DNA from: Prorocentrum cordatum
Lineage: Eukaryota
Length of the DNA stretch: 64,000 nucleotides
Reading direction: 5' to 3'
NCBI GenBank assembly: GCA_963575745.1
Contig: CAUYUJ010000023.1
Location: 1 to 64,000 of the forward strand
The translations under genes were made by a program, and so were the position numbers. This document shows, one piece after another, positions 6,915 to 38,999 of the stretch (the first letter of the stretch is position 1; every line of letters starts with the position of its first letter). A model generated the notes under the pieces. It did no database searches, had not been told where the DNA came from, and saw only the letters and a program-made list of their open reading frames with translations.

Positions 6915-8340
6915 CGAGTCATCTTGATACGTGCTGTCGGTATTTTGTACTTAAGTCGAGCTGTAGGGCAGCTACAGTGCTGGTAAGCACAGCTATCGCA
7001 CTCAGAATCATTAGGCGCGTTCGCCTGTTCAATCCAGAGGTCTGAACTCGGTCTGCTACCCGAGCTAGGTCCGCAAACCTATTCGTATTATTCGAGTCAA
7101 CTTGATATGCGCTGTCGGTATTTTGTACTTAACCCGAGCTGTAGGGCAGCCACAGTGTCTGTAAGCACACCTATCGCACTCAGAATCATCAGGCGCGTCC
7201 GCCTATTCAATCCAGAGGTCCGAACTCGGTCTGCTACCCGAGCTAGGGTCGCAAACCTATTCGTGTTATTCCAGTCAACTTGATAGCGTTGTCGGTATTT
7301 TCTGCTAACTCGAGGTCTAGGGCAGCTACAGTGCTGGTAAGCACAGCTATCGCACTCAGAATCATCAGGCGCGTTCGCCTGTTCAATCCAGAGGTCTGAA
7401 CTCGGTCTGCTACTCGAGCTAGGTCCGCAAACCTATTCGTATTATTCGAGTCAACTTGATACGCGTTGTCGGTATTTCCTACTTAACTCGAGGTGTAGGG
7501 CAGCTACAGTGCTGGTAAGCACGCCTATCGCACCCAGAATCATCAGGCGCGTTCGCCTGTCGAATCCAGAGGTCTGAACTCGGTCTGCTAGCCGAGCTAG
7601 GTCCGCAAACCTATTCGTATTATTCGAGTCAACTTGATACGTGTTGTCGGTATTTTCTGCTTAACTCGAGGTCTAGGGCAGCTACAGTGCTGGTAAGCAC
7701 AGCTATCGCACTCAGAATCATCAGGCGCGTTCGCCTGTTCAATCCAGAGGTCTGAACTCGGTCTGCTATCCGAGCTAGGTCCGCAAACCTATTCGTATTA
7801 TTCGAGTCATCTTGACAGACGCTCTCGGTTTTCTGTACTTAACTCGAGCTGTAGGGCAGCTAGAGGGCTCATTGTCACAGACATCGATGGGGAATCATCA
7901 GTCGCGTTCGTCTACTGAACCGAGAGCTCTGAACTCGGCCTGCTGCCCGAGCTAGATTTGCGAAACTATTCGTATTGTTGAATGATCTTGAGAAGTGCTC
8001 TCTGTCTTCTGCACTTAACTCGTGTTTGGGCCGGCTACAGTGCTGCGGGTCACATATATCGATTTGCACACATCAGGCGTGTTTGTCGATCGATTCCAGA
8101 GCTCGGAACTCGGTCTGCTGCTCGAACTAGATCGGGAAAACTATTCTATTATTCGAGTCGATACTGTCGGTTTTCTGCACTTAACTCGGGCTGTAGGGGG
8201 GCTGCACGGCTGGGAATCACATGAGTGGATTGGCAGACATCAGACGCGGCCGCCTGTCGCATTCAGAGGTCTGAACTCGGTTTGATACCCGAACTCGGTT
8301 GCGAAACTGTTTGTTTTTTGTTAACTCTATCTTGATAGGT
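6915..8340 (+). repeat. 178-bp tandem array inside a family B element (~8 units)
   Basis: Homogeneous 5' units and divergent 3' units. Confidence 0.85.
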
Positions 8341-9769
8341 CTCAAATCGCTTGGGCTGAAAAACTAGTCGTTCTTTGGAGTTTTTTCCCACACTTTATAT
8401 TTTCAGGAAGCTCTACGAGTCCCCCGGCGGTAAGAAAGGTTGACGGTTTACCGCCGGCGCCCAGTTGGCCCAGCCGGCCGAGGCGGACAATGTGGCAACT
8501 TTTGGGTGGTTTTGTAATTTTTTGAAAGATATTTGACAATTCATTTTGAGAAAGCAGATTTTTACTCCGAGCATTGAGATATAAACTTCGTTCCCTGAGC
8601 AGCTCAGCTCTCTAGAGTGATTTTCAGTACCAGTTCACTTGGAGCAACCGACTTCATGTTGACTCCGAAAAATCTCAACTTGATTTTTTCTGTAGAAAAG
8701 CTCCCAGAAGCTTCCGCTTCGATGCTGAGCTTTCTCACGGATGCAAGGAGCTCTACGAGGTCCCCGGCGGTGACAGGTTGACGGTTCACCGCCGGCGCCA
8801 GTTGGCCGACCCGGCCAGAACGGACAAAGTGGTAACTTTTGGGTGGTTTTGCGAATATTTGAAAGATATTTGACCATTTATTTTGAGAAAGCAGATTTTT
8901 CGCACCTGTAGACGACTATGAGGGCCTCTGCGTCTTAATATGAGCTCTGTAGATGCGCTTTTACTATCAAAACACTTGGCGAAACCAACTTCATGTCGAC
9001 ATGGAAAAAATCACGTTTTCTTATTTTCGAGAAATGCTTCCAGAAGCCCTCTCTTTTGATGCTGAGCACTCTCACGCGTGCCAGGAGCTCTACGAGGTTC
9101 CCGGCGGTGTCCAGGTTGACGGTTTACCGCCGGCGCCAGTTGGCCGACCCGACCAAAAGAGACAATGTGTTAACCTGGGGTCGGTTTTTGGAACATTGTG
9201 CAAGATTTGACAATTCGTTTTCATAAGTTGGATTTTTCCTACCTACAATAAGCTATGGCGCATCTGCTGGTAAAATTTTCAGGGCTCTAGAAGCAATATT
9301 ACTATCAAAAGACTTGCGGAACCGACTTTGCCCGCAGTACAGTTTGGCAGGTGACGGTGGTTGGCTTTACTTAACTCGAGCTGTCAGCAATCTACAGACC
9401 TCTCACGCACACCAGTCGATGCAGAATGATCTGACGCGTCACACTGGAAGCTCGAGAGTTCCTAGAAATGGCTGAGTCAGGAGTTATGATCGAAATACCG
9501 TCTCTATGTATGCGTGTTGCGAACGGTGTTTCGATGATAATTCGAGCTGAGTGCATGCTATGCATGCCAGGTGCATTCCAATCGAAGCAGCGACATGCGA
9601 GACATCGAATGAGCCTCGAGAGTGCCCAAATTGATTAGAATTTTCAAAATTAATGAAAAATATCGATTTGTACAATTTTATATTTTTTGTGTCGGATGAT
9701 TTTTTTCTAATTTATATCGATCTATGGGTGACCTAGAGAGTTCTGGTGCATTTTTGTCGACGCAGAATG

Positions 9770-9798
9770 GTCTCGCGCTCTCACTGAGAGCGCGAGAC
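9770..9798. repeat. Perfect 13-bp-stem hairpin about 30 bp from an element junction
   Basis: GTCTCGCGCTCTC-ACT-GAGAGCGCGAGAC. A family A host resumes at ~9832 (TTGGTCCAGCCGG). Confidence 0.7.
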
Positions 9799-11444
9799 TT
9801 CATATGAATAGCTTCGCTGGGAGTGAGAACTTTGGTCCAGCCGGCCGAGGCGGACAATGTGACAACTTTTGGGTGGTTTTGCAATTTTTTGAAAGATATT
9901 TGACAATTCATTTTGAAAAAGCAGATTTTTACTCCGAGCATTGAGATATAAACTTCGTTCCCTGATCAGCTCGGCCATCTAGAGTCATTTTCAGTACCAG
10001 TTCACTTGAAGGAACCGACTTCATGTTGACTCCGAAAAAATCTCAACTTGAAGTTTTTGTAGAAAAGCTCCCAGAAGCTCCCGCTTTGATGCTGAGCTTT
10101 CTCACGGATTCAAGGAGCTCTACGAGGTTCCCGGCGGTGACCAGGTTGACGGTTCACCGCCGGCGCCAGTTCCGGAGCGCTGGAGAGCTAGTTGGCAAGA
10201 AAAATCTCGACGGACCTTTTGGTGACTTTTGGTCGGTTGAAAATTTTGTTCTCGAAATTTGACCATTCGTTAGAGCTCTAGTATTTTTTCCCGTGATATT
10301 CGATCTTATTCCCGCTCGCCATCTTGATCTCAGCTCGATCGGGTACCTTTTACTGCCAAAAAGCGTCCCGGCGGGAACGGCCGTTTCGAGTCATCTTGAT
10401 ACGCGTTGTCGGTATTTTGTACTTAACTCGAGCTGTAGGGCAGCTACAGAGCTGGTAAGCACACCTATCGCATTCAGAATTATCAGGCGCGTTCGCCTGT
10501 TGAATCCAGAGGTCTGAACTCGGTCTGCTAGCCGAGCTAGGTTCGCAAACCTATTCGCATTATTGGAGTCATCTTGACAGACGCTCTCGGTTTTCTTTAT
10601 TTAACTCGAGCTGTAGGGCAGCTACAGGGCTCATTGTCACAGACATCGATGGGAAATCACCATTCGCGTTCGTCTATTGAACCGAGAGCTCTGAACTCGG
10701 CCTGCTGCCTGAGCTAGGTTCGCGAAACTATTCGTATTGTCCGAATCATCTTGAAGAGTGCTCTCGATTTTCTGCACTCAACTCGTGCTGGGTAGGGCTA
10801 CAGTGCTGCGGGTCACAGATATCGATTTGCACACATCAGGCGCGTCTGTCTGTCGATTCCAGAGCTTGAAACTCGGTCTGCTGCTCAAACTAGGTCCGCA
10901 AAACTATTTTATTATTCGAGTCGATACTGCTGGTTTTCTGCACTTAACTCGGGCTGTAGGGGGGCTGCAGGGCTGGGAATCACATGAGTGGATTCGCAGA
11001 CATCAGACGGGCCCGCCTGTCGCATTCAGAGGTCTGAACTCGGTTTGATACTCGAACTGGATTGCGAAACTGTTTGTTCTTTGTTAGAGTCATCTTGAGA
11101 GGTGTGAAATCGCTTGGGCTGAAAAACTGGTCGTCCTTTGGAGTTTTTTTACACACTATTTACTGTCAGGAAGCTCTACGAGTCCCCCGGCGGTAAGAAA
11201 GGTTGACGGTTTACCGCCGGCGCCCAGTTCCGGCGCGCCCCAGAGCTTGGCGAAAATCTCGACGGAACTTTTCACAACTTTTGCTCGGTTGAAAATTTTG
11301 TTCTCGAAATTTGAACATTCGTTAGAGCTCTAGTATTTTTTCCCGTGATATTCGATCTTATTCCCGCTCGCCATCTTGATCTCAGCTCGATCGGGTAACT
11401 TTGAAGGCCAAAAAGCACGGTGGCGGGAACGGCCGTTTCGAGTC

Positions 11445-12470
11445 ACTTTTGACATGCGCTGTCGGTATTTTGTACTTAACTCGAGCTGTAGGGCAGCTAC
11501 AGAGCTGGCCAGCACAGCTATCGCACTCAGAATCAGCAGACGCGTTCGCCTGTTGAATCCAGAGGTCTGAACTCGGTCTGCCAGCCGAGCTAGGTCCGGA
11601 AACCTATTCGTATTATTCGAGTCAACTTGATACGCGTTGTCGGTATTTTCTACTTAACTCGAGCTGTAGGGCAGCTACAGTGCTGGTAAGCACGCCTATC
11701 GCTCGCAGAATGATCAGGCGCGGTCGCCTGTTGAATTCATAGGTCTAACTCGGTCTGCTAGGCGAGCTAGGTCCGCAAACCTATTCGTATTATTCGAGTG
11801 AACTTGATACGCGTTGTCGGTATTTTCTACTTAACTCGAGCTGTAGAGCAGCTACAGTGCTGGTAAGCACACCTATCGCACTCAGAATAATCAGGCGCGC
11901 TCGCCTGTTGAATCCATAGGTCTGAACTCGGTCTGCTAGGCGAGCTAGGTCCGCAAACCTATTCGTATTATTCGAGTCCACTTCATACGCGTTGTCGGTA
12001 TTTTCTACTTAACTCGCGCTGTAGGGCAGCTACAGTGCTGGTAAGCACACCTATCGCACTCAGAATAATCAGGCGCGTTCGCCTGTTGAATTCATAGATC
12101 TGAAATCGGTCTGTTAGCCGAGCTAGGTCCGCAAACCTATTCGTATTATTCGAGTCAACTTGATACGGTTCGTCGGTATTCTCTACTTAAATCGAGCTGT
12201 AGGGCAGCTACAGTGCTGGTAAGCACGCCTATCGCACTCAGAATAATCAGGCGCGTTCGCCTGTTGAATCCAGAGCTCTGAACTCGGTCTGCTGCGCGAT
12301 CGAGAATCACGAAACTGTTCGTATTCTTCCAGTCACCTTGAGAGCTACTGTCGGCGTTCTGCACTTAGCTCGGGCTGTAGGGGGGCTGCAGGGCAGGTAA
12401 TCAGAGGAATCGATTCGGAGACATCAGACGCCTCTGTCTGCTGCATTCAGAGGTCCGAACTCGGTCTGAT
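11445..12470 (+). repeat. 178-bp tandem array inside a family B element
   Basis: Same unit, ~6 copies. Confidence 0.8.
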
Positions 12471-13619
12471 GCTCGAGTTGGGCTGAAAAACTATTCCTTC
12501 TCACAATTTTCTTCGATATTATATGTTGTCAGGAAGCTCTACGAGTCCCCCGGCGGTAACAAAGGTTGACGGTTTACCGCCGGCGCCCAGTAATTCCGGC
12601 GCGCCCCAGAGCTAGTTGGCTCGAAAAATCTCGACGGAACTTTTGGTGACTTTTGCTCGGTTGAAAATTTCGTTCTCGAAATTTGACCATTCGTTAGAGC
12701 TCTAGTATTTTTTCCCGTGATATTCGATCTTATTCCCGCTCGCCATCTTGATCTCAGCTCGATCGGGTGGATATTACTATCGAAAAGCTCGGTGGCGGGA
12801 TCGGCCGTTTTGAGTTATCTTCATACGCGCCGACAGTTTTCGGAACATAACTCGAGCTCTAGGGCAGCTACAGAGCTGATAAGCACAGCTAATGCATGCA
12901 GAATGATCAGGCGCGTTCGCCTGTTGAACCCAGAGGTCTGAACTCGGTCTGTCAGCCGAGCTAGGTCCGCAAACCTGTTTGTATTATTCGAGTCAACTTC
13001 ATACGCGTTGTCGGTATTTTCTACTTAACTCGAGATTTACGGCAGCTACAGTGCTGGTAAGCACTCCTATCGCACTCAGAATGATCAGATGCGTTAGCCT
13101 ATTGAATCCATAGGTCTGAACTCGGTTTGCTAGTCGAGCTAGGTCCGCAAACCTATTCGTATTATTCGAGTCAACTTGATACGCGTTGTCGTTATTCTCT
13201 ACTTAACTCGAGCTGTAGGGCAGCTACAGTGCTGGTAAGCACACCTACCGCACTCAGAATTATCAGGCGCGTTCGCCTGTTCAATCCAGAGCTCTGAACT
13301 CGGTCTCTTGCGCGATCCAGAATCACGAAACTGTTCGTATTCTTCTAGTCATCTTGAGAGCTACTGTCGGCGTTCTGCACTTAACTCGGGCTGGAGGGAG
13401 GCTGCAGGGCGGATAATCACAGGAATCGATTCGGAGCATCAGACGCGTCCGTCTGTCGCATTCAGAGGTCTGAACTCGGTCTGATACTCGTGTTGGGCTG
13501 AAAAACTATTCGTTCTCTACAATTTCTTTCGACAGTATATGTTCTCAGGAAGCTCTACGAGTCCCCCGGCGGTAAGAAAGGTTGACGGTTTACCGCCGGC
13601 GCCCAGTATCAGCTCTGTA

Positions 13620-16527
13620 GCTGTCCTAAATCTCGAGTTACGTATAGAAACCGTCAATGCGTGCCAATATGACTCGAAACGACCGACGATTCCCTCAAGT
13701 CTTGTGACAATAATATTACAGCTTCAGACCTGGGAATTTAACTAGCAGACGCGGCATAACCCGCTACGGGTGAGAAGAAAACGTGTTTGTAAAACAAATT
13801 TTCAAATTTTGCACAGAGATAGAATAACCGACCCCAAGTCGTCACATTGTCTCTTTAGGTCGGGTCGGCCAACTGGGCGCCGGCGGTAAACCGTCAACCT
13901 TTCTTACCGCCGGGGGACTCGTAGAGCTTCCTGACAAAATATAATCTGGACAAGAATTTCAGAGAACGAATAGTTTCTCAGCCCAAGCGATTATAGACCT
14001 CTCAAAATGACTCTACCAAAACAAACGAACAGTTTTCCAATCGAGCTCGAGTATGAAACCGAGTTCAGACCTCTGAATGCGACAGGCGGGCGCGTCTGAT
14101 GTCTGCGGATCGATTCCTATGATTACCAGCTCTGCAGCCCCCCCATACAGCCTGAGTTAAGTGCAGAAAACCGAGGGTACCTCTCAGGATGATCCGAATA
14201 ATACAACAGTTTCGCGGATCTCGTTCGAGCAGCAGACCGAGTTCCGAGCTCTCGGTTCGACGAACGGACGCGCCTGATGTCTCGAAATCGATTCCTGTGA
14301 CCAGCAGCACTGTAGCCCTCCCCCAGCACGATTTAAGTGCAGAAAACCGAGAGCACTGCTCAAGATAACTCCAACAATACCAATAGGTTCGCGAACCTAG
14401 CTCAGGAAGCAGGCCGAGTTCAGAGCTCTTGATTCAACAGACGAACGCGCCTGATAATTCTTAACCGATTTCTGTGATCATCAGCTCTGTGGCTGCCCTA
14501 CAGATCGAGTTAAGTACGAAAAACCGAGAGCGTCTGCTACAATGACTCGAATAATACGAATAGGTTTGCAGCCCGAGCTCGGCTAGCAGACCCAGTTTAG
14601 ACCTCTAGATTCAACAGGCGAACGCGCCTGATCATTCTGAATGCATTAGCTGTGCTGACCAGCTCTTCAGTTGTTCAGAAGCTCGAGTTATCTTGAGAAA
14701 ACCATCAGCGCGTATCAAGATGACTCGAAACGGTCGTTCCCGCCTGCCTGCTGTTTGGCCTTCAAAGTTACCCGATCGAGCTGAGATCAAGATGGCGAGC
14801 GGGAATAAGATCGAATATCATGGGAAAAAATACTAGAGCTCTAACGAATGGTCAAACTGGGCGCCGGCGGTAAACCGTCAACCTTTCTTACCGCCGGGGG
14901 ACTCGTAGAGCTCCCTGACAATATATAGTGTGGGAAAAAATCCAGAGAACGATTAGTTTTCAACCCAGGCGATTTCAGACCTCTCAAGATGACTCTAACA
15001 AAAAAACAAATAGTTTCGCAACCCAGTTCGAGTATCAGACCGAGTTTAGACCTCTGAATGCGACAGCCGGACGCGTCTGATGACTACGAATCGACTCATA
15101 TGATTACCAGCCCTGCAGCCCCCCTACAGCCCGAGTTAAGTGCAGAAAACCGACAGGATCTCTCAGGATGACTCGAATATAATAGTTTCGTGGACCTGTT
15201 TCGAGCAGCAGACCAAGTTCTGAGCTCTCGAATCGACCAACGAACGCGCCCGATGTGTGCAAATCGATTTTTATGACCCGGAGCACTGTAGCCCTCCCCG
15301 AGCACGAGTTGGGTGCAGGAAAATGAGAGCACTTTTAACGATGATTCAGACAATACGAATAGCTTCGCGAACCAAGCTCGGGCAGCAGGCCGAGTTCAGA
15401 CCTCTTGATACAAGAGACAAACGCGCCCGATAATTCCCAATCGATTTCTGTGACTATAGACTCTGTAGCTGCCCTGCAGCTCGAGTTAAGTACAGAAAAC
15501 CGAGAACGTTTATCAAGATGCCTCGAAGAATACGAATAGATTTGCGGACCTAGCTCGACTCGCACAGCGAGTTCAGACCTCTGAAGTCAAGAGGCGAACG
15601 CGCCCGATGATTCTGAGTGCGATGGATGTGCTTACCAGCTCTGTAGCTGCCCTGCAGCTCGAATTGAGTACACAATACCCACCACGCGTATGAAGTTGAC
15701 TCGAATAATACGAATAGGTCTGCGGGCCTAGCTCGGCTAGCAGATCGAGTTCAGACCTATCGATTCCACAAGCGAACGCGCCTGATAATTCTGAGTGCGA
15801 TAGGTGTGCTTATCAGCACTGTAGCCGCCCTACAGCTCGAGTTAAGTAGAAATATCGATAACGCGTATCAAGTTGACTCGAATAATACGAATAGGTTTGC
15901 GGATCAAGCTCGGCTAGCAGAGCGAGTTCAGACCTCTGGATTCAACAGGCGAACGCGCCTGATAATTCTGAGTGCGATAGGTGTGCTTACTTACCAGCAC
16001 TGTAGCTGCCCTACAGCTCGAGTTAAGTACAAAATACAGACAACGCGTATCAAGATGACTCGAAACGGCCGTTCCCGCCGGGACGCTTTTTGGCAGTAAA
16101 AGGTACCCGATCGAGCTGAGATCAAGATGGCGAGCGGGAATAAGATCGAATATCACGGGAAAAAATACTAGAGCTCTAACGAATTGTTGAATTTCGAGAA
16201 CAAAATTTTCAATCGACCAAAAGTCACCAAAAGGTCCGTCGAGATTTTTCTTGCCAACTAGCTCTCCAGCGCTCCGGAATTACTCTCAAGCTTCCAGCAA
16301 GAACTTGCTAAGGGAAGCTCTACGAGTTATTTTGAGAACAAAATTTTCAACCGACCAAAAGTCATCAAAAGGTCCGTCGAGATTTTTCTTGCCAACTAGC
16401 TCTCCAGCTCCCCGGAATTACTCTTAAGCTTCCAGCAATAACTTGCTAAGGGAAGCTCTACGAGTTACTAGCTCCACCTGCGACCGAATTCCTCTAAGCC
16501 CATCTTGCCGAAAAGCTCTACGAGGTA
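13620..16527 (-). mobile_element. Minus-strand nest: B (14857-16329) inside B (13873-16467) inside A
   Basis: Reverse-complement termini CTGGGCGCCGGCGGTAAACC at 13873 and 14857, CTACGAGTTA at 16329 and 16467, CTACGAGGTA at 16527. Hosts rejoin across each insertion. Confidence 0.8.
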
Positions 16528-16732
16528 AGAAAACGCACACGAGAAAACCTTCCTGGCAAACCCACGGAGGCACGCGTGAAGCTCTTCTGGGGCTCTAGGG
16601 GGCGCCCCAGCAGCGCTTCCGAAGCGCTGCCGAAAACGCTTCCACGCGTGCCTGCATGCGTGCGGGCGCGCGTGGAAGCTTGCCGGAAGCTTCCCCGGAC
16701 ACGATACCGGATCGAACGAGCTGCTGCGGGAA

Positions 16733-19700
16733 TGACTCGTAGAGCTTCCCTGAGGGCGCAGCGACGAATCTTTAGAGTAACTCGTAGAGCTTCGCTTAGC
16801 AAGTAACTCGTAGAGCCTTCCTTAGCATGTTATTGCTGGAAGCTTTAGAGTAATTCCGGAGCGCTGGAGAGCTAGTTGGCAAGAAAATTCTCGACGGAAC
16901 TTTTGATGACTTCTTCCCGGGTCCTTGGAGAGCTGCGGGTTTCAGAGAAGAAGCCGGCGATGGGTGGTGAGGAGCACACGCCCACTTCCGCCGGTCCACG
17001 ATCCCCGCAGCGACTCGCCGGAGGTTCCAGCGGGTCCGGGAGCGTGGCTTCCTAGCGTTTCCCAATACGCGTGGCTCCAGGGTGCGCGAAGCGCTTTTGC
17101 AGAGCTTCGGAAGAGCTTCGGCAGTTCTTCCAGGCTCCTAGGCAGATCTTCCTTGGGCGCTTTGCAGGGCTCGACGCATCGTAAACGGCGCCCCTACAAG
17201 CGTCTCCTGCGAGGTTTCCAGCGTTTCACGCATCGTTTCAGGCAGCCTGGCAGAGATCCCCGTGCGGCGTTCCGCGCTTGGCTGCGCTATCCGGGTTTGC
17301 GATGCTTACAAGTGCTCGATTGAAAATTCCCGGATAGCTTCTTGGAGAGCTGAGGGTTTCAGAGAAGAAGCCGGAGGTGGGTGGTGAGGGAGACACGCCC
17401 ATCCCCGCCGGTCCACGATTCTCGCAGCAACTTGCCGGAGCTTGGAGCGGGTCCGGGAGCGTGGCTTCCTAGCGTTTCCCAATACGCGTGGCTCAAGAGT
17501 GCGCGAAGCGCTTCGGCAGAGCTTCGGCAGAGCTTCGCCAGTACTCGCAGGCACCTAGGCAGAGTCGTCGTGGTAGGTAACTCGTAGAGCTTGCCTTAGC
17601 AAGTTATTGCTGGAAGCTTAAGAGTAATTCCACGAGCTGGAGAGCTAGTTGGCAACAAAAATCTCGACGGACCTTTTGGTGACTTTTGTTCGGTCGAACA
17701 TTTTGTTCTCGAAATTTTAACATTCGTTAGAGCTCTAGTATTCTTTCCCATGATATTCGATCTTATTCCCGATCGCCATCTTGATCTCAGCTCGATCGGG
17801 TAACTTTGAAGGCCAAAAAGCAGGCAGGCGGGAACGGCCGTTTCGAGTCATCTTGATACGCGCTGTCGGTATTTTGTACTTAACTCGATCTGTAGGGCAG
17901 CTACAGAGCTGGTAAGCACACCTATCGCATTCAGAATGATCAGGCGCGTTAGCCTGTTGAATCCAGAGGTCTGAAATCGGTAAACTTGGTCTGCTAGCCG
18001 AGCTAGGTCCGCAAACCTATTCGTATTATTCGAGTCATTTCGACAGACGCTCTCCGTTTTCTGTACTTAACTCGAGCTGTAAGGCAGCTACATGGCTCAT
18101 TGTCACAGAGATCGATGGGGAATCATCAGTCGCGTTCGTTATGAAACCGAGAGCTCTGAATTCGGCCTGCTGCCCGAGCTAGGTTCGCAAAACTGTTTGT
18201 ATTGTCTGAACCATCTTGAGAAGTGCTCTCAATTTTCTGCACTCCTATCGACGGCTACAGTGCTGCGGGTCACATATATCGATTTGCGCACATCAGGCGC
18301 GACTGTTGATCGATATCAGAGCTCGGAACTCGGACTGCTGCTCGAACTAGGTCTGCGAAGCTATTCTATTATTCGAGTCGATACTGTCGGTTTTCTGCAC
18401 TTAACTCGGGCTGTAGGGGAGCTGCAAGGCTGGGAATCACATGAGTGGGTTCGCAGACATCAGACGCGCCCGCCTGTCGCATTCAGAGGTCTGAACTCGG
18501 TTCGATTCTCGAACTGGGTTGCGACAATGTTTGTTTTTTGGTTGGAGTCATCTTGAGGGGTCTCAAATCGCCTGGGCTGAAAAACTAGTCGTTCTTAGGA
18601 GTTTTTTCACACTATATACTGTCAGGAAGCTCTACGAGTCCCCGGCGGTAAGAAAGGTTGACGGTTTGCCGGCGCCCAGTTTCACAGAGCCCCGCGCGTC
18701 GTGAAAGGCGCCCTCGCAGGCGTCTCCTGCGAGGTTTCCAGCGCCCCACGCATCGTTCCAGGCGGCCGGGCAGAGGTCGCCGTGCGGCGCTTTGGAGCTC
18801 TCTGCGCTTCGTGCCTTGCCTCGCTATCCGGGTTTTGGACGCTTACAAGTTTTGTTCTCGAAATACCTCGTAGTGCTCTTCGCCAACGATGAGCTAGAGG
18901 AATTCCGGCGCGGGGCGGAGCTAGTTGGCCGACCCGGCCAGAAAGGACTAAGTGATAACTTTTGGCTGGTTTTGCATGTTTTTCAAGATATTCGACAATT
19001 TTATTTTGAACAAACAGATTTTTACTCGAGCATTGACATATAAACTTCGTTCCCTGAGGAGCTGAGCCCTCTAGAGCCATTTTCAGTACCAGCTGACTTA
19101 GAGCAACCGACTTCACTCCGAAAAATCTCAACTCGAAGTTATTGTAGGAGAGCTCCCAGAAGCTTTCCCTTTCACGGATGCAAGGAGCTCTACGAGGTTC
19201 CCGGCGGTGACCAGATTGACGGTTTACCGCCGGCGCCAGTTTGACCATTCGTTAGAGCTCTAGTATTTTTTCCTGTGATATTCGATCTTATTCCCGCGCG
19301 CTATCTTGATCTCAGCTCGATCGGGTAACTTTGAAGGGCAAAACACACTCTGGCGGGAACGCCCGTTTCGAGTCATCTTGATACCCGCTGTCGGTTTTCT
19401 GAACATGACTCGAGCTCTAGGGCAGCTACAGGGCCCTAGAGCAGCTATTGCACGCAGAATAATCAGACGCGTTCGTCTGTTGAACCCAGAGGTCTGAAGT
19501 TGGTCTGTGAGCCGAGCTAGGTCCGGAAAACTGTTCGTATGATTCGAGTCATCTTGACAGAAACTCTCGGTTTTCTGGTCTTAAGTCGAGCTGTAAGACA
19601 GCTACAGAGCTGTCAAGCACACCTATCGCAGTCAGAATAATTAGGCGCGTTCGTGTTAAATCTAGAGGTCTGAACTCGGTCTGTTAGCCGAGCTAGGTCC

Positions 19701-22700
19701 GCAAACCTATTCGTATTATTTAGGTTATCTTGATAGGCGCCCTCGGTTTTCTGTACTTAACTCGAGCCGTAGGGCAGCTAAAGAGCTCGTAGTCACAGAA
19801 ATCTATGGGAAATCACCAGGCGCCTTTGTTCGTTGACTCGAGAGCACTGAACTTGGCCTGCTGCCCGAGCTAGGTTCGCAAAACTATTCGTATTGTTCGA
19901 GTCATCCTGAGAAGTGCTGTCGGTATTTCGTGCTGGGGGGAGGCTACAGTGCTGCTGGGGACAGCAATCGATTTAGAGACATCAGGCGCATCCGCCTGTG
20001 GAGACCAGAGCTCGGAACTCGTCTGCTGCCCGAATTAGGTCTGCGAAACTACTGTATTGTTGGAGTCATCCTGAGAGGTGCTGTCAGTTTTCTGCACTCA
20101 ACTCGGGCTGTAGGGGGGCTGCAGGGCTGGTAATGATAGAAGTCGACTCGCAGACATCAGACGCGTCCGCCTGTCGCATTGAGAGGACAGAAAATATTTA
20201 CTATGAGTCGGAATGTTGGTAGGTCCTCGGTGTTCTCAACTTCAGTCGAGCTGGAAGCTCTACGAGTCTCCCGGCGGTAACCAAGGTTGACGGTTTACCG
20301 CCGGCGTCCAGTTAATGCTGGAAGCTAAGAGTAATTCCGGCGCGCGGGAGAGCTAGTGACTCGTAGAGCTTCCCTGAGAGCGTAGCGGCGAAGCTTAAGA
20401 GTAATTCGAAAACGCTGGCAGGCTAGTTGGCTCGAAAAAAAAGAACTGAACTTTTCACAACTTTTGCTCGGTTGAAAATTATGTTCTTGAAATTCAACAA
20501 TTCGTTTGAGCTCTAGTATTTTTTCCCGTGATATTCGATCTTATTCCCGCTCACCATCTTGATCTCAGCTCGATCGGGTGCATATTACTATCGAAAAGCA
20601 CTGTGGCGGGATCGGCCGTTTCGAGTCATCTTGATATGCGGTGTCGGTTTTTTTTACTTAACTCGAGCTGTAGAAGAGCTACAGAGCTGGTAAGCACACC
20701 TATCGCATTCAGAATCATCAGGCGCGTTCGCCTGTTGAATCTAGAGGTCTGAATTCGGTCTGCTAGCCGAGCTTGGTCCGCAAACCTATTCGTATTATTC
20801 GAGTCATCTTGACAGACGCTCTCGTTTTTCTGTACTTAACTCGAGCTGTAGGGCAGCTACAGAGCTGGTAAGCACAGCTATCGCATTCAGAATCATCAGG
20901 CGCGTTCGCCTGTTAAATCTAGAGGACTGAATCCGGTCTGCTAGCCGAGCTAGATCGCAAACCTATTCGTATTATTCGAGTCATCTTGACAGACGCTCTC
21001 GGTTTTCTGTACTTAACTCGAGCTGTAGGGCAGCTACAGAGCTGTAAGCACAGCTATCGCATTCAGAATCATTAGGCACGTTCGCCTGTTGAATCTAGAG
21101 GTCTGAATTCGATCTGCTAGCAGAGCTAGGTCCGCAAACCTATTCGTATTATTCGAGTCATCTTGACAGACGCTCTCTGTTTTCTGTACTTAACGCGAGC
21201 TGTAGGGCAGCTACAGAGCTCATAGTCAGAAATCGATCGGGAATTACCAGGCGCGTTCGTCTGTTGATTCGAGAGCTCTAAAATCGGCCTGCTGCTCGAG
21301 CTAGGTTCGGAAAACTATTCGTATTGTCCGAATCATCTTGAGAAATGCTTTAATTTTCTGCACTCAACTGGGGGGGGTACAGTGCTGCGGGTCACACACA
21401 TCGATTTGCACAGATGAGGCTCGTTCGTCGGTCGATTCTAGAGCTCGGAACTCGGTCTGCTGCTCGATTTAGATCCGCGAAACTATTGTATTATTCGAGT
21501 CATCCTGAGAGATGTTGTCAGTTTTCTGCACTTAACTCGGTCTTCAGCGGGGCTCCATGGCTGTTAATCACATGGGTCGATTTGCAGACATCAGACGCGT
21601 CCGCCTAGTGCATTCAGAGGTCTGAAGTTGGTTTGATACTCGAACTGGATTGCGAAACTATTTGTTTTTCCTTAGAGTGATCTTGAGAGTCTGAAATCGC
21701 TTGGGCTGAAAAACTAGTCGTTCTCTGGAGTGTTTTTTCCACACTATATGCTGTCAGGAAGCTCTACGAGTCCCCCGGCGGTAACAAAGGTTGACGGTTT
21801 ACCGCCGGCGCCCAGTTGGCTCGAATAAAAAGAACTGAACTTTTCACAACTTTTTCTCGGGTGAAAATTTTGTTCTCGAATTTCGACAATTCGTTTGAGC
21901 TCTAGTATTTTTTCCCGTGATATTCGATCTTATTCCCGCTCGACATCTTGATCTGAGCTCGATCGGATGAATATTACTATCGAAAAGCACTGTGGCGGGA
22001 TCGGCCGTTTCGAGTCATCTTGATGCACGCTGACGGTTTTTCTCAACACAACTCGAGCTGTAGGACAGCTACAGAGCTGGTAGGCACAGCTAATCGATGA
22101 AGAATGGAAAGGCGCGTCCGCCTGTCGAATCCAGAGGCCTGAACTCGGTCTGTTAGCCGAGCTAAGTGCGCAAACCTATTCGTATTATTCGAGTCATCTT
22201 GACAGGCGCTCTCGGTTTTCCGTACTTAACTCGAGCTGTAGGACAGCTACAGAGCTGATATTTACAGGAACTGATTCAGAATCATCAGTTGCGTTTGTCT
22301 GTCGAACCCAGAGCTCTGAACTCGGTTTGCTGCCCGATCTAGAATCACAAAATTATTCGTATTGGTCGAGTTATCTTGAGAAGTGCTATCGGTTTCCTTC
22401 ACTCAACTCGCGCTGAGGGGGGCTACAGTGCTTTTTCTCACAGAAATCGATTTGAAGAAATCAGGCGTGTCCGCCTGTCGAATCCAGAGCTCGGAACTCG
22501 GTCTGCTGTCCGAACTAGGTCCGCATAATGATTGTATTGTTCGAGTCATCCTGAGAGGTGCTGTCGGTTTTCCGCACTTAAATCGGGCTATAGGGGTGGT
22601 AATGAGAAGTCGATTCGCAGACATAAGACGCGTCCCCCTGTCGCATTCAGAGGTGAAAAAATATTCACTATGAGTCGGAATGTTGGTAGGTGCTGTCGGT

Positions 22701-23542
22701 TGTCTCAACTGAAGTCGAGCTAGAAAGCTCTACGAGTTTCCCGGCGGTAACCAAGGTTGACGGTTTACCGCCGGCGCCCAGTAATTCGAAAACGCTGGCA
22801 GGCTAGTTGGCTCGAAAAATCTCGACTGAACTTTTCACAACTTTTGCTCGGTTCAAAATTTTGTTCTCGAAATTTGACAATTCGTTTGAGCTCTAGTATT
22901 TTTTCCCGTGATATTTGATCTTATTCCCGCTCGCCATCTTGCTCTGCGCTCGATCGGATGAATATTACTATCGAAAAGCACTGTGGCGGGATCGGCTGTT
23001 TTGAGTTATCTTGATACGTGCTGACGGTTTTCTGAACATAACTCGAGCTTTAGGACAGCTACAGAGCTGGTAAGCACAGCTAATCGATGTAGAATGATTA
23101 GGCGCGTTTGGCTGTTCAATCGAGAGGTCTGAACTCGGTCTGTCAGCCGAGCTAGGTCCGCAAACCTGTTCGTATTATTCGAGTCATCTTGAACTCTCGG
23201 TTTTCTACAATTAACTCGAGCTGTAGGACAGCTACAGAGCTGATATTTACAGAAACCGATTCAGAATCCCCAGTTGCGTTTTTCTGTTGAATCCGGAGCT
23301 CTGAACTCGGTCTGCTGCCCGATCTAGAATTTGTATTGCTCGAGTCATCTTGATAAGTGGTCTCGGTTTTCTTTTCCCAACTCGCGCTGAGGGGGCTACG
23401 CTGGTGGTCACAGGAATCGATTTGAAGACATCAGGCGCGTCCGCCTGTTGAATCCAGAGCTCGGAACTCGGTCTGCTGCCCAAATTAGATCTGCAAAACT
23501 TCTATATTGTTCGAGTCATTCTCAGAAGTGCTGTCGGTTTTC
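16733..23542 (+). mobile_element. Five-level nest of B, D and A elements
   Basis: B1 (starts 16733) contains B2 (16778-22781), which contains B3 (16804-20311), which contains D (17327-18849), which contains B (17578-18679). B3 also holds D (16914-17312) and A (18864-19239). B2 also holds B (20357-21815). Confidence 0.85.
17327..18849 (+). mobile_element. Family D GC-rich element interrupted by a B element
   Basis: 5' TTCCCGGATAGC ... 3' GCTATCCGGG-TTTTGGACGCTTACAAG. Empty site TGAAAA|TTTTGTTCTCG. Confidence 0.75.
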
Positions 23543-23543
23543 C

Positions 23544-23602
23544 TGGCTCAAGGCTCAAGGCTCAAGGGTCTCAAGGGTCTCAAGGGTCTCAAGGGTCTCG
23601 AG
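23544..23602 (+). repeat. Spliced-leader-like tandem repeats at the LINE 5' end
   Basis: TGGCTCAAG-GCTCAAG-GCTCAAG-(GGTCTCAAG)3-GGTCTCGAG. The dinoflagellate spliced leader ends TTTTGGCTCAAG. Confidence 0.6.
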
Positions 23603-23775
23603 ACGTCAGGGTTCGACGTCGAACAGGGCCCACGTCAGGGCGCACACACAGGCTTGCCTCAAGCCCCCCTCTCGTGCGGTGCGTGTTTGACGTATCGCGG
23701 GGGCTGTGTTCACATTGAATCCTCGCTCTCGTCCTTGATATCAAGATATCGTGGGGATCGCAGGAAGATCAGGAT

Positions 23776-25272
23776 TTGTCTGGATTTTACAAAAGACCAC
23801 TGTGGGCGGTTGGATTGAAAACGGACTCGCAGGGAGCATATATTATACCGTCAGAAGACGATCAGAGTGAATATTTCACGTCAGCTGACTTTGGTGTGGA
23901 TAGTGACCCACATCCGTGTGATTGGTTGAAAGACACATCAGCTACTGTGCCGCGATTAACGACGCAGGAGAAGAGGGAAGATCAGATAGCACTTGAGTTG
24001 GAAATTTCCCCACCAGAGGCATTTGTTCAGCAGGAGGCGTACGATTTCAAGAAGATTGGGCAATCAGATAGATATCAGGCTGCACTTCACACATTGCGTA
24101 CAGTCAAAGAGAGGAATAAACGACGTCCGTCAGCAATCATGGCGGATGACAAAGCAGAAGATAGCAAAATGGGAGGGAATGCGAGTAGTGAATGGTTGAG
24201 AGAGGTGAGGGCGAAAGGGGAGGGCAAAGGCTCCAGTGCTTCGAGTGGTCTGGCCGCGGCTTCCAGTGCTGCTGTCCAGGCGCCTCATTTAGCTACAGCC
24301 CAAGTCCCCAATGCTACGAGTGGTCTGGCCGTGGCCCAAAGTGCTGCTGTCCAGGCGCCTCAACCAGCTACAATGACGCCCGAGGAAATGTTCAGACAGA
24401 TTTTGAAAGGCCAGAGTGAAGTAACTGCGACGGTTAGTGAGTTCAAAACATCGGTTGCAGCTGATTTACATGTCATGGAGGAGAAGATTGATAGAACAAC
24501 GTCAGATGTCAAAACGTTATCGGAGCAAATGAAACAGGCCCAAGCTGACATTCAGAATCTGAAAAATGGAGACGCTCAATCTTGCGCAAGCGGTTCGACT
24601 AGATACGGATCAGGTGACGCGGGCAGTGGTGCAGGGCATAATTCGAACTGGGTACCATCATATATTGAGTTCAAAGGATGGATATCACGTGAGGGTTGGA
24701 AGAATAGAGAGATAAAACAAAGGGAGGCCATGAAACAACAGGTGCTGACCGACAACATAACGAAATTATTGGGATTGGCATCGCTGGACGCAACACATAA
24801 TGCTGCTTTTGATCATGCGAGAACTGCGGGGGAGAATACTGGCAGGTACTGGCCATACACACGGGGGCGGATCTATTTCAAAAAGGGGGCGGCAGTGGAT
24901 ATCATATGGCAGGTTCGGAATTGTTTCGACAGCGAATACAAGAGAGGAAACACTGACCTCCCACCGAATGTAAAGTTTCATGTTGAATGCGCGCCATGGA
25001 GAACACCCCATGTCCAACAGGTTGGTAAGTTCCAGAGTTGCTTTGCGGAAGTGAAGAAAACGACGGGGACCATGTGCAAGGGGGAGCCAGGGCCGCCAAA
25101 ATCATACATATGGTTTACACAAAACCCACAGGCAGATCCAGACACAAGAGTACTGATTGCTGAGTGGGGTGTACACAGCGGGTGGGCGCTACACACTAAT
25201 AATCTGAGGAGGGTGGAGCCTGAGGTGGATCAAGAGGGGTTACTCACGAAGCTCAGACAGACGAACAATTGA
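23776..25272 (+). CDS. LINE ORF1 protein (coiled coil plus probable RRM-like region); first in-frame ATG at 24139
   Basis: Long ORF upstream of APE-RT. Heptad segment VSEFKTSVAADLHVMEEKIDRTTSDVKTLSEQMKQAQADIQNLK followed by WVPSYIEFKGW. Contains a 75-bp internal duplication. Confidence 0.7.
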   Translation: MSGFYKRPLWAVGLKTDSQGAYIIPSEDDQSEYFTSADFGVDSDPHPCDWLKDTSATVPRLTTQEKREDQIALELEISPPEAFVQQEAYDFKKIGQSDRYQAALHTLRTVKERNKRRPSAIMADDKAEDSKMGGNASSEWLREVRAKGEGKGSSASSGLAAASSAAVQAPHLATAQVPNATSGLAVAQSAAVQAPQPATMTPEEMFRQILKGQSEVTATVSEFKTSVAADLHVMEEKIDRTTSDVKTLSEQMKQAQADIQNLKNGDAQSCASGSTRYGSGDAGSGAGHNSNWVPSYIEFKGWISREGWKNREIKQREAMKQQVLTDNITKLLGLASLDATHNAAFDHARTAGENTGRYWPYTRGRIYFKKGAAVDIIWQVRNCFDSEYKRGNTDLPPNVKFHVECAPWRTPHVQQVGKFQSCFAEVKKTTGTMCKGEPGPPKSYIWFTQNPQADPDTRVLIAEWGVHSGWALHTNNLRRVEPEVDQEGLLTKLRQTNN

Positions 25273-26991
25273 CGGTGCCAGTCTGCCACTCAGCTCGCGG
25301 TGGCAACTTGGAATGTCAACATGAGGAATAGCGAGCTTTTGCCAGCAATGCTGGAGTTTTGTCATTATGATGTGCTATGCTTGCAGGAGTGTCAGTACAT
25401 GTCATCGGCAGCATTTGAAGCATGTGGGTGGCAGGTGCGTTTTAGTGTGTGCCGACGAGCTGCTGTGGCCTTCAGGGGCCCATGGGCGGCGACTATTTCG
25501 GACAGTAAGTGCGGTGAGAGGTTTGCTGTTGTACAATTTGCATCTGTGGTCGTGTCCTCAGTGTACCTACCCACAGTGCAGCGGGGAGATGATAGGCTCG
25601 ATGAATATTGTGACGTTCTAGCTAAGCTGTGTGCATGCATGCAACTATGTAGCGAGCAATACCAGGGGTCCAAAGTATTGCAGTTTGTGGGGACAGATGC
25701 GCAGACGGAGCTGGAACCAAATCTCTTGGGGTTCACGGGAGAAGGATTGGAGGAGGTGTGGATGAGGTCGGAGGCGAAACATCATGAGGAGAGGAGGGAC
25801 ATGCTCGTGCGCTTTCTGAATCACTGGGGTCTTTGTGCAGCCAACACCTACGGCGTGCGACAAGTGACGCACAGGCCGTGGAGTACCAGCAGCTACTCCA
25901 GGGTGTTGGACTATGTATTTGTGCCGACACAATTTGCAGGTACCGAGGTGGCTCGGACCAACTGCTCATTTGAATGCACGGTGGAATTTGTGGATCCTAC
26001 ACAGGATCGAGCGTCACGCTACAGTGACCATGCGAAGGTAGGTGTGAGGATAAAACATGTGTCGGTGCGCAAGCCTTTCGTGCGACCCAGGCCCCCGAGC
26101 CTCATCAATTGGGCCCCGGAGGATTATGAGTCAGCGAATGTGTTCAGTACACTGGCCGATGTGCAGGTACAACAACATATGAACCAACAGGGTGACATAA
26201 ATATACAAACAGTTGGACAGATGCTTGTGAGTGCTGCGACGATGTGTAGGCATACAAAGGGCAGGGCGGATACTAAACCAATCAAAAAACCTGACCAACT
26301 CGTGGACGTTGAAGCGGAGTTAAGGAGGGGTGTCTTCGGTGAGCGTAGGAAACAATTACTGAGACGTCAAAAAACACTCCGAAGAAAGTTCAGGCGGGAA
26401 CAGCTCCTCAAGGACTCCACTGGCCTCAAACATGGACCCCGTAGGTGTATCAAGGAAATGCTGTGTGACGGGATACTGACAGAAAATAAACAAAGATGGG
26501 TGGAGGAGCTCAACAAACACGTACAACGGTCATATACATGTGATGGGGAGGGAGGAGCTGCAAAGAGAGAGTTGCATCGACTACGGACACAGTGGGAGGC
26601 AGAGGGCAGAACTACGAACAGGGTCATATCTATGGGTGTGTTGCTGGGGGCTCGAGCCCGATTGAAGGGCGGCACCGCAGCGGGCTCTGATGGCCTGGTG
26701 GCGGAGATTCTCAAAGCAATACCTTGGAATGCATTGAGATTGATACGACACTCATTTCAAGAAATACATGATCATAAAAAGTCCTCACCTGATTCGTGGA
26801 GGAAGTTGTGCGTGCAGCTGATTCCAAAAATGAGCATGATCCAAACATTTGGGGAGACTCGTGCAATATCGCTGTTGAGTGTTATGAGCAAGTGGTACAT
26901 GGCGTGCCTTCTTATTCTTGTGGAGGAACATGGACATATCAAAAATTGGCGACATATGGATTCCAGGAGAGTCACAAAGTTCATCACATGA
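25273..26991 (+). CDS. LINE ORF2 N-terminal part: apurinic-like endonuclease (APE) and RT N-terminus
   Basis: APE motifs VATWNV, DVLCLQE, SVYLP, GTDAQ, LDYVF, SDH. RT N-terminal motifs AAGSDGL, SWR..LIPK, RAISLLSV. Confidence 0.9.
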   Translation, partial: RCQSATQLAVATWNVNMRNSELLPAMLEFCHYDVLCLQECQYMSSAAFEACGWQVRFSVCRRAAVAFRGPWAATISDSKCGERFAVVQFASVVVSSVYLPTVQRGDDRLDEYCDVLAKLCACMQLCSEQYQGSKVLQFVGTDAQTELEPNLLGFTGEGLEEVWMRSEAKHHEERRDMLVRFLNHWGLCAANTYGVRQVTHRPWSTSSYSRVLDYVFVPTQFAGTEVARTNCSFECTVEFVDPTQDRASRYSDHAKVGVRIKHVSVRKPFVRPRPPSLINWAPEDYESANVFSTLADVQVQQHMNQQGDINIQTVGQMLVSAATMCRHTKGRADTKPIKKPDQLVDVEAELRRGVFGERRKQLLRRQKTLRRKFRREQLLKDSTGLKHGPRRCIKEMLCDGILTENKQRWVEELNKHVQRSYTCDGEGGAAKRELHRLRTQWEAEGRTTNRVISMGVLLGARARLKGGTAAGSDGLVAEILKAIPWNALRLIRHSFQEIHDHKKSSPDSWRKLCVQLIPKMSMIQTFGETRAISLLSVMSKWYMACLLILVEEHGHIKNWRHMDSRRVTKFIT

Positions 26992-29006
26992 CGGCCCCTT
27001 TGCTGCACATGACACGTCATGCCACTCTCTGGGGAAAAGGCGAGTCGGTACATATGGGAATAATGGATATAAAGAAAGCGTTTGATCATGTCACTGTCTC
27101 GATGGTGATCCGCGCGATGGAACACCTGAGATACCCAACAGATCTGATTATTGCAATTGTGGAGCCTATGATTGGAAACACAGCAGTTTTTGATTTCCAG
27201 GATGTGTGCAGCGAAGAGATCCTGTATAACAAGTCGGTGCGAACTGGAGGGAAAGAAGGCCCAGTACTCTTCAATATTGTGTTGGAGGCAATTTGGGCCT
27301 CTATTGCTGAATCATGGGAAGCATGTCATTATGGAGTACGATTGGAAGGCGAGGGGACACAACAGGCGCTGGTCAATCATTACATATGGGCTGACAATGT
27401 GGTGCTGCTGGCATCTTCGGCGAATCAGCTGAGGAATATGGTGAGTATGTTGACCGTGGCCCTCAGACGGGCTGGTATGGACTGGAAGATTGAGAGCCTG
27501 GAGTACCTTGTTTTTGGGCTGAGACAAAACCAGGGGCCACAATCATTAGTTTGCGAACTGGGAGATGATATTTGTGCACGGGCTGGAGACCCCAGCCTAC
27601 CCTATCAATTACGTGAGGCGGTGGTTTTGCCGAGGAAAAGCGAGTGCGACATACTGGGAGTTAAATTTGTGACGAACCCGAGGGATTTCCATGCAGTGCG
27701 GCACCGTATCGATGCAGGCAGGCGGTGTTTTTATGCTGATATTAAATTCTATCGATCACGCGCGGTGAGCATGAGGGAAAAATTCAGACGGTATCAGAGC
27801 AGAGTTCAACAGATCATATGCCATGGATGTGTGGGGTGGAGCTGTAATGAACATGTGCTGAACATATTGAGGAGCTTTGAAGGAAGATGTTTGAACACAA
27901 TGCGGGGATTACATAGAAAAGAGACGGAAACGTGGGAGGAGTTCAGGGATCGCAGTACCAACAGATCCAGGGAGATGTTCAAGGAGGGGGGGTTCAAAAC
28001 GTTGGTGGAGAAAGTTGTGAGGTACAACTTTGAATTCGCCGTGGAGGTATCCCAATATAAGTGCCACATGCCGTCCACTGTGTATAGCAAATCGTGGCAG
28101 CAGACGCTGCGCTCCATGTTGCACGTATCGGGGGAGTGGACGGTGCAGAGGGATGAAATGCTGGCGGCAGTAAGTCGGACGATGTCGAGAGAGGGAACGA
28201 GACGGCTCAGAGGCAGACCACGAATCGTGGCGAGCAGCTGGCATGCACCCTTTGAAAAATGGAGGTCGCTCCTGTGGCACGACACGTGCGTTGTACCGAC
28301 GGATTGGGAGGAGTTTGTGGAACACATATCACAGATACCCAAAGTGCAGGACATGTTTGTGAGGAGGAGTAAGGAGAGGAGGGTGGGAGGGTTTGCGAAG
28401 ACACCGACAGATGACGAGTTGGCCCGACGCCTTGCAGTTATTAATGAACAGACTACGATATGGGACCCTGGGATGGAAGGTATCGCTGTTGAAATGTGCG
28501 GAGACAGTAAAACGGTCGTACAATGGTTGAGGGGAGTCTGGGCCTGTGACAACAGTGGGTATGCCAAACGGATCGCCAGGATACAAAATATCATGTATGA
28601 CGTGAGTGAACAACACAACATACGATGCCCGACGTACGGTAGGGATTTCTGGAAACATATCTATAGGGAAGCCAATGCCTATGCTGATGAGCTGACACAC
28701 CATGCGAGAGAAGGAAACTGTTACAGAATTTACAAGCACGACTATATCAAACAGAACAGGACAAACATCAAATACATCAGAGGATGCTGGGATGGTGGAG
28801 TGAGCAGTGAGGGTGCTGCAGGAGGTCACTGGATCGAAGTTGCTCCAGAGAATGGCCCGTGGACACTCGTGAGCTCAGAAGCCTACATGTTTGATGTAGG
28901 AGCCACCGTGACGGAGGCAGAATTATCTGCTGCCGAGCGCCTGTGCACAGGTGTGGAGCACATTGTTAAAGAAATTTCCTCTGCAAAGCGGAGGAGGCGG
29001 ATTTAA
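26950..29006 (+). CDS. LINE ORF2 C-terminal part: reverse transcriptase plus circularly permuted RNase H, in the -1 frame relative to the APE part
   Basis: RT motifs YGF, DIKKAFDHV, VRTGGKEGPVLFN, WADN, ILGV. RNase H motifs GDSKTVV and HIYREANAYAD, followed by WDGG..G.AGG and TEAELSA. Confidence 0.9.
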
Positions 29007-29087
29007 CTGGCTCTAGCCCTTAGGCTTGGGCGCACGCGCCCTGTGTAGCCTGACCAAACACCAAACTCGGGGCTGCAGGGCTGGTAA

Positions 29088-38180: not shown

Positions 38181-38240
38181 GGAGCCCAAAAACTTCCTTG
38201 TTGCTCCAAAATGTGGCCTGGGAACTGCGTTCTGGCAGCG

Positions 38241-38996: not shown

Positions 38997-38999
38997 CAA

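Follow-up and report, generated by a model that had tools for sequence, protein, structure and literature searches.

Same-orientation nesting of Helitron-like elements in the 5' leaders of resident copies within a 64-kb window of Prorocentrum cordatum

Helitron-like elements of the HLE2 group (Helitron2/Helentron type), including the non-autonomous HINE/DINE-1 forms, have a well-described anatomy (PMC11417382, PMC13085455, PMC4067079, PMC7492417), which is matched by the repeats of one stretch of Prorocentrum cordatum DNA (assembly GCA_963575745.1, contig CAUYUJ010000023.1, positions 1 to 64,000, forward strand; 64,000 nucleotides, hereafter the window). Four related, non-coding families, named here A, B, S and X, make up 46.2 kb of the 64 kb (72%), and at 16733-22781 five elements are nested in one another in last-in-first-out order. 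How Helitron-like elements choose their targets, and how satellite-like blocks originate, are poorly understood. HINE/DINE-1-like Helentrons, for example Cg_HINE of the Pacific oyster (PMC4067079, PMC7492417), share with the elements of the window a subterminal inverted repeat (subTIR) that sits 2 nt inside the 5' end and has its inverse about 40 nt short of the 3' end, an inverted repeat (IR) that pairs with the 5' subTIR as a 5' hairpin, a 3' palindrome near the terminus, a central array in fixed orientation, the lack of target duplication and the presence of a T in the target. Central tandem repeats are a HINE trait, though not a universal one. In HLE2 elements, the inverted repeats lie 2-4 nt from the 5' end and tens of nt from the 3' end, insertion falls between T and T (T and T/C for Helitron2), and autonomous partners with matching ends encode a Rep-helicase, accompanied in Helentrons by an endonuclease. 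In contrast to HINE, the elements studied here have no microsatellite in the left flank. Also, instead of the strict TT of HINE, the cut is R|T (a bar marks the cut, R a purine), or T|N when read in the other phase, with T|T in 10 of 17 site types. Finally, they are nested at fixed hot spots, a feature that does not appear in the extracts of the HINE descriptions (PMC4067079, PMC7492417).

Tandem Helitron insertions have been reported in several organisms (PMC5148889), and stacking of this kind is already known from fungi. FoHeli, a Helitron2 of Fusarium oxysporum, is of the same superfamily type and also presents asymmetric terminal inverted repeats; its copies carry two to five stacked 5' termini with a duplicated 5' piece shorter than 200 bp (PMC5148889, PMC13342296), and the authors ascribe these stacks to same-orientation self-insertion near the 5' end (PMC5148889). 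In the chimeric, autonomous FoHeli elements several 5' termini share one 3' terminus, whereas in the window each stub has its own closing 3' end, giving full nests, and the elements are non-autonomous. Furthermore, several families target one another here, and the sites and the strand bias could be quantified. In the main article texts, we found no published site or strand statistics for such nests of Helitron, Helentron or DINE-1 elements. The window is thus a clear new example of stacking and not a new kind of element.

Elements of families A, B and S begin with T[AG/AC]CTCGTAGAGC and end with GCTCTACGAG, followed by a hairpin (CCGGCGGTAA..TTACCGCCGG) and CGCC(C)AG, the next base always being T. 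The 5' motif has 82 matches in the window for 1.06 expected, and the 3' end pattern 35 for 0 expected. A 15-nt subTIR (ACTCGTAGAGCTTCC) begins at nt 3, that is 2 nt inside the 5' end, and the inverse copy (GGAAGCTCTACGAGT) is found about 41-45 nt short of the 3' terminus. When single-stranded, the subTIR and its complementary IR are predicted to fold into a 5' hairpin spanning nt 3-48; this hairpin was predicted in 4/4 folded B copies and also in A and S copies, while the fold z-scores of the 100-nt leader were mixed (-3.3, -2.8, -1.5 and +0.1). The 3' hairpin has a stem of 10-12 bp that ends 7 nt short of the terminus, with fold z-scores of -1.7, -3.9 and -2.4 in three copies, and shows a compensatory stem difference, being of TGAC/GTCA type in S and of TAAC/GTTA type in A/B. 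The interior of A and B copies contains tandem arrays of a 177/178-bp unit (period 175-178) in fixed orientation. A long interspersed nuclear element (LINE) is the only clear coding element of the window, and neither a Rep or helicase gene nor an autonomous partner was found among the open frames and domain matches of the window. Judged by this anatomy, the elements are classed as non-autonomous HLE2 of the HINE/DINE-1-like type.

A total of 87 rows of termini, plus those at 52238 and 53220, were tabulated in this single 64-kb window, and the table of insertion events was curated by hand. The 40 nt outside each terminus were mapped onto reference copies, and bracket-matched pairs of termini were submitted to joint reconstruction. 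Naive bracket matching mis-paired some ends (1052/2898, 3126/4355), so every pair was checked in this way. The host was rebuilt base for base in 20 of the 22 bracket-matched pairs, the two others being off by 1 nt, and target-site duplication is therefore absent at the joints. When the 17 cut-site types are read as R|T, T follows the cut in all of them and a purine precedes it in 16; when they are read as T|N, there are 10 T|T, five T|A, one T|C and one T|G. Every boundary carries an uncertainty of 1 nt, because one T may be counted with the element or with the target.

The nest at 16733-22781 is built as E1 > E2 > E3 > X2 > E4, each element enclosing the next, with additional inserts in the E3 leader (X1 and an S copy) and in E2 (E5). 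A first, sequence-only reading of the window had listed 5' ends piled up at 16733, 16778 and 16804, closed by 3' ends at 18679, 18849, 20311 and 22781, and had described a five-deep last-in-first-out nesting after which each interrupted host resumes. All these positions turned out to be true element ends, and gapless joint reconstruction bore out the nesting: every joint restores a continuous host, without gap or duplication. The 5' ends, which include a further one at 17578, read T[AG]ACTCGTAGAGC..., and the 3' ends at 18679, 20311 and 22781 show GCTCTACGAG, the hairpin and ...CCCAG, then T. The closing at 18849 is the 3' end of an X element (...GCTTACAAG then T), and its matching 5' end, at about 17327, lies outside the piled 5' ends. 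Joining of the flanks gave gapless alignments to intact copies for E1, for E2 and for X2 across E4, and the E3 leader aligned without gap over 263 nt once its three inserts were removed.

The outermost layer is an X fragment (X', 16528-16732, minus strand) that adjoins a minus-strand nest at 16527 and E1 at 16733. The flank of 16527(-) maps to X positions 257-296 in the same orientation and the flank of 16733(+) to X positions 130-92 in the opposite one; an intact paralogue of the E1 target is present at 42574-42605 (...GCTGCGGGGG-TTCTGGACCGGCGA). All the following segments are on the plus strand. The 5' stub of E1, of A type (16733-16777), is cut at site b, AGAG|TAATTC, and is continuous at position 45|46 of the host (A_E5). 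The 5' stub of E2 (16778-16803) is interrupted at site a, GCAAG|TTA, which occupies the apical loop of the 5' hairpin; continuity was found at position 26|27. The leader of E3 starts at 16804-16912 (B-type positions 1-108), gives way to X1, a 399-bp X copy (16913-17311), and reappears for 15 nt between X1 and X2 (17312-17326), as established by the gapless rebuild of the leader. X2, the fourth layer, was delimited by flank joining and comprises a left part (17327-17577) and a right part with the 3' end at 18849 (18680-18849). Between them lies E4, an uninterrupted 1102-bp B-type element (17578-18679), which is the innermost, fifth layer and across which X is continuous at 248|249; the 3' hairpin stem of E4 is degenerate. 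The E3 leader then resumes for 14 nt (18850-18863, leader rebuild) before a 376-bp S-type element (18864-19239) inserted at site f, CGAAA|TTTGACC, with continuity at position 137|138. According to joint reconstruction, the remainder of E3 (19240-20311) holds the rest of the leader, a 177-bp array and the 3' end. E2 resumes at 20312-20356 (positions 27-71) and is cut again at site d, GAGCTAG|TTGG, by E5, an uninterrupted 1459-bp A-type element (20357-21815; continuity at position 70|71). The remainder of E2 (21816-22781), attached by joint continuity, includes its 3' end, with a 3' hairpin of z=-3.9. Finally, E1 resumes from leader position 46 and runs into its array (22782-23543), up to the point where the LINE breaks in.

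Insertions are concentrated in the leader, defined as the first ~160 nt (up to position 161 in A/B and 114 in S). In A, B and S hosts, 34 of 43 insertions fall in the leader (20 pairs and 14 single junctions), all 34 in the orientation of the host and none in the opposite one. By comparison, array insertions include three in the same and five in the opposite orientation, and the single insertion in an S body (53220, which adjoins an S copy in opposite orientation) is opposite as well; the difference in orientation between leaders and arrays plus bodies (three same, six opposite) is significant (Fisher P=1.4e-5). All pairs with both junctions are located in the leader, 11/11 in A/B hosts and 9/9 in S hosts. 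For A/B hosts alone, the first 161 nt received 18 of 26 events (19 of 27 when the anomalous junction at 2898 is counted), and the arrays, said to be rarely hit in the sequence-only reading, indeed received only the other 8 of the 26. The first 200 nt of A/B copies represent 14-28% of base pairs or of T, R|T, AG|T, T|T or AT-rich T sites. Leader clustering exceeded what the availability of T sites predicts, with P from 1e-5 to 1e-10 against six site-availability nulls. As the strand bias is limited to the leader, a locus-wide cause such as replication direction does not account for it. The claim that elements target the 5' ends of one another in the same orientation thus stands for A, B and S hosts of this window; it does not extend to X hosts, in which insertions gather in the last 40 nt.

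The same target sites were used repeatedly. Site d, GAGCTAG|TTGG, was used ten times (including 938, 999, 20357, 41025, 16467(-), 37022 and 51030), site b, AGAG|TAATTC, six times (including 1052 and 16778), and site c, which reads TAA|TTCC or its counterpart in S, five or six times, while AAA|TCTCGACG was used at 5493 by a B element and at 33830 by an X element; the reuse of three of these words (sites d and b and AAA|TCTCGACG) had been noticed from the sequence alone, and all are present where they had been located. Apart from one pair, this reuse is independent. At site d, B-type inserts in three S hosts are 93-96% alike and the hosts only 73-80% alike, so the hosts had diverged before the insertions and the events are independent. 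Sites b, c, e and f were entered by members of different families (59-75% identity between inserts), in leaders that are variously of A, B and AB type. The only reused-site pair that could be an old duplicate is 30252(-)/32225(-), with 90.5% identity between hosts and 88.0% between inserts.

When 12 leaders of families A, B and S were aligned, just two blocks proved invariant downstream of the subTIR, namely GAG.AATTC and GCTAGTT (leader motifs GAGTAATTC and GCTAGTTGG). Sites b and c lie inside the first block and site d inside the second, and together they received 22 of the 34 leader events. In the predicted folds of the 5' hairpin, site a maps to the apical loop and site b to the base. The busiest sites coincide with the two cross-family motifs and not with hairpin loops as such.

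Elements of family X, which are 325-400 bp long, have a 10-nt subTIR situated 2 nt inside the 5' end, with the inverse 17 nt from the ...CAAG 3' end. The consensus ends are TTCCCGGAGAGC in 5' and GCTCTCCGGG plus 17 nt ending in CAAG in 3'; the termini of X1 are TTCCCGGrnAGC and GCTATCCGGG plus a 17-nt tail ending in CAAG. Fold analysis gave no 3' hairpin in this family. Besides X1 (16913-17311) and X2 (17327-18849), a copy is present at 33830-34155 and tails were found at 36898-36921, 42557-42573, 47639-47661 and 48059-48094. X elements insert into B leaders in the same orientation as their hosts. When X is itself the host of A, B or S elements, insertions lie mainly in its last 40 nt, five further ones adjoin its 3' end and two in opposite orientation lie in its 5' part.

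On balance, and with moderate confidence, we consider that targeting of the top strand of resident leaders by the transposase of the elements explains the co-oriented last-in-first-out nests. The block is composed of three related non-autonomous HLE2 families, A, B and S, plus the simpler X. Under this model, integration would proceed through a single strand, without target duplication, 5' of a T that is nearly always preceded by a purine. The transposase would cut the top strand of a resident 5' leader in preference to other DNA, the targeted leader comprising the subTIR-IR hairpin and the two short conserved motifs of A, B and S. Each new copy would thereby enter an older one, facing the same way, and recurrence of this step would generate nests and head-to-tail pairs. 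The junctions agree with HUH-type single-strand integration beside a T and without duplication, which is accepted for Helitron-like elements (PMC5148889, PMC4067079). The strand bias in the leader is too strict for a nearly symmetric supply of words, which favours recognition of the resident leader by a Rep-helicase, and we infer that this recognition, either by binding of the motifs or by unwinding of the top strand from the 5' end, would be the cause. Also, more tentatively, integration may be coupled to initiation: a Rep-helicase loading at a resident 5' end would peel off the top strand and expose the first ~160 nt. If so, this stretch, and above all the conserved motifs that the Rep-helicase would bind, would become the preferred single-stranded target, and satellite-like co-oriented nests would be an intrinsic by-product of HLE2 chemistry.

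A bacterial parallel is offered by the HUH transposons of the IS200/IS605 family, such as IS608, which integrate as single strands without duplication, whose transposase binds subterminal hairpins, and which choose a strand-specific target beside a short word related to their own terminus. IS608 differs in that it is bacterial, uses a Y1 enzyme without helicase and requires a fixed target word of 4-5 nt. We know of no self-nesting of elements of the IS200/IS605 family.

Several observations weigh against leader targeting as formulated above. Fourteen of the 34 leader events are supported by a single junction alone. In X hosts, 6 of 7 same-orientation insertions lie in the last 40 nt, so the targeting rule cannot simply be "5' end". 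Cut sites are predicted to be unpaired with no greater probability than random leader T sites (P=0.75 and 0.52), and the hairpin loop as a target is therefore not supported. The recruitment of a Rep is something that we infer purely from the insertion pattern, because the search of the window yielded no Rep or helicase gene. Moreover, a nested composite can move as a unit, and the order of layers therefore need not equal the order of arrival; with the best identity to any other copy taken as a proxy for age, the insert exceeded its host in two of five A/B pairs, equalled it in one and was below it in two. Joint reconstruction gave no host span for the pairs 878/9139, 3126/4355, 53988/55460, 49795/50195, 480/877 and 48488/48880, and two 'continuous' calls, 47662/48058 (score 42) and 51799/53220 (score 27), were discarded for their low score. 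The region 1052-4355 and much of 42.6-57 kb resist clean parsing. In the former, the element 1052-2898 is followed by the leader from position 51, with 3 nt (TAA) missing at the junction; after that leader, the first array unit houses an element whose 5' end, AAACTCG at 3126, is degenerate. This irregularity is probably due to a later rearrangement or to a microhomology junction.

The alternative that survives best is a plain sequence preference without any recruitment, in which asymmetric words (R|T in a T-rich context) would merely happen to sit on the top strand of the leader. It would agree with the T found after every cut and the purine found before it in 16 of the 17 site types, with the reported preference of HLE2 for T-T or T-rich targets (PMC11417382, PMC4067079, PMC7492417), and with the share of leader events (22/34) held by two fixed motifs; the cut word GAG|TAATTC resembles the junction of the elements themselves, CAG|TAACTC, and site b resembles the head-to-tail junctions at 479/480 and 877/878. 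However, the 12 remaining leader events occurred at eleven other, unrelated positions, all on the top strand. The bottom strand of the leader offers almost as many R|T, T|T and AT-rich T sites (top share 0.54-0.63; for R|T, 127 bottom-strand and 149 top-strand sites), and for 19/19 events to fall on top, the T|T and AT-rich nulls give a chance of about 1e-4 to 1e-5. In addition, leader positions 162-262 are T-rich and yet received zero insertions. We therefore regard sequence preference alone as unlikely.

HUH enzymes require single-stranded DNA, and a host process such as transcription near the 5' end or the formation of R-loops might expose the top strand of the leader to any HUH transposase. 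This proposal fits the requirement of these enzymes, and a bias present in the leader and absent from the arrays calls for a local cause and not for replication-fork direction. Nevertheless, it leaves the concentration of insertions in motifs conserved across families unexplained, and we judge it improbable.

It could also be argued that a few composites were copied, the shared junctions deriving from one or two ancestral nests by transposition or by segmental duplication. According to a published model (PMC5148889), a nested element retains the outer ends and could transpose as a whole, and the similar divergence of host (90.5%) and insert (88.0%) in the pair 30252(-)/32225(-) is what such copying would leave. 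But at site d the hosts differ by 20-27% and the inserts by 4-7%, and sites b, c, e and f carry inserts of different families in hosts of A, B and AB type. The descent of the shared junctions from one segmental duplication, which the sequence-only reading had named among the outcomes that would overturn it, is thus contradicted by the identities of hosts and inserts, and the copying of composites is largely refuted and very improbable as a general explanation.

Equally little credit can be given to products of replication, that is rolling-circle concatemers or hairpin template switches producing both stubs and head-to-tail copies. Direct head-to-tail junctions do exist at 479/480, 877/878 and 50195/50197(-), 5'-truncated S copies are present at ~33246-33593 and 53677-53744, and the Fusarium study considers this alternative for tandem copies (PMC5148889). 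Such products would, however, need to exit and return to the exact next base in 20 of 22 pairs, and host and insert often belong to different families.

The sequencing-run evidence consists of short Logan contigs (80-250 nt) from runs recorded as DNA or as of unknown kind, none of which spans the nest. Contigs of two runs join 17576 to 18679, representing X copies without E4, and contigs of one run represent B copies without the 14857-16329 insert; both are paralogues and provide no assembly test. Misassembly, which the extreme abundance of the family would facilitate (word depth of 1e4-1e5 in four sequencing runs, i.e., a very high copy number), is hardly credible, as the copies differ by 3-25% and the stubs resume base-exactly in their own family variant after 0.4-8 kb, which makes chance assembly joins unlikely.

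If resident leaders are indeed targeted, this would explain how elements can heap up in their own graveyards while sparing genes. The window preserves dozens of independent insertions with base-exact junctions, and its leader-specific top-strand hot spots are unusually clear and countable. A strand-specific hot zone centred on cross-family motifs also provides a concrete hypothesis for the cognate Rep. For annotation, these data constitute a warning, as apparent 'satellites' in this genome are ordered transposon stacks.

Other nests of the same families are present in the window. A second, deeper one on the plus strand (878-13606) has stubs at 878, 938, 999 and 1006 and closings at 9139, 8801, 8464 and 5414. 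Four further closings were found at 10169, 11227, 12590 and 13606, whose stubs would be upstream of the window; this nest therefore has four verified stub layers and would reach as many as ten if those upstream stubs are real. The minus-strand nest at 13873-16527 has three layers, S > B (13873-16467) > B (14857-16329). A further plus-strand nest (36922-42556) is formed by an S-type element that sits in an X tail and encloses two S elements (36961-41003 and 37022-39466) and two B elements (39521-40720 and 41025-42231).

The LINE that interrupts the array of E1 (23552-29087, plus strand) has open reading frames at 23719-29006 with Exo_endo_phos, RVT_1 and RVT_3 domains. Its start is preceded by a (GGCTCAAG/GGTCTCAAG)n run at about 23543, and it contains zero insertions by the Helitron-like elements of the window.

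Direct head-to-tail S copies (..GCGCCAG|TACCTCG..) were observed at 423-938 and at 50195-50197(-). Every insertion restores an AG|T junction, whose reuse could have produced these copies; rolling-circle concatemers are another possible source. The 5'-truncated S copies mentioned above, both on the plus strand, lie in 177-bp arrays and start near S positions 47 and 309, the one at ~33246-33593 being opposite in orientation to its host. Also, the S-type element at 37022-39466 (2445 bp) has an unrelated interior of ~2.2 kb, which includes an array at 38247-38998 (4.7 copies of a 160-bp repeat, 95% matches) as well as an open frame, 37313-38257, that has no Pfam match.

A metagenome scan with B-type 5' ends returned 26 loci, of which only one, L019, is a true relative; at 381-400 of this locus, a 3' end and a new 5' end lie 19 nt apart in a reversed array fragment (..GTTAAG|T). 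Toward the GC-rich right end of the window (58-63% GC), an open frame of 1083 codons (57838-61089, plus strand) has no Pfam match at E up to 0.01 and may be either a real gene or a GC-driven frame. Finally, in the interval 63385-63952, 5.9 copies of a 52-bp tandem unit (94% matches) precede a GGCTGA-rich 16/94-bp repeat.

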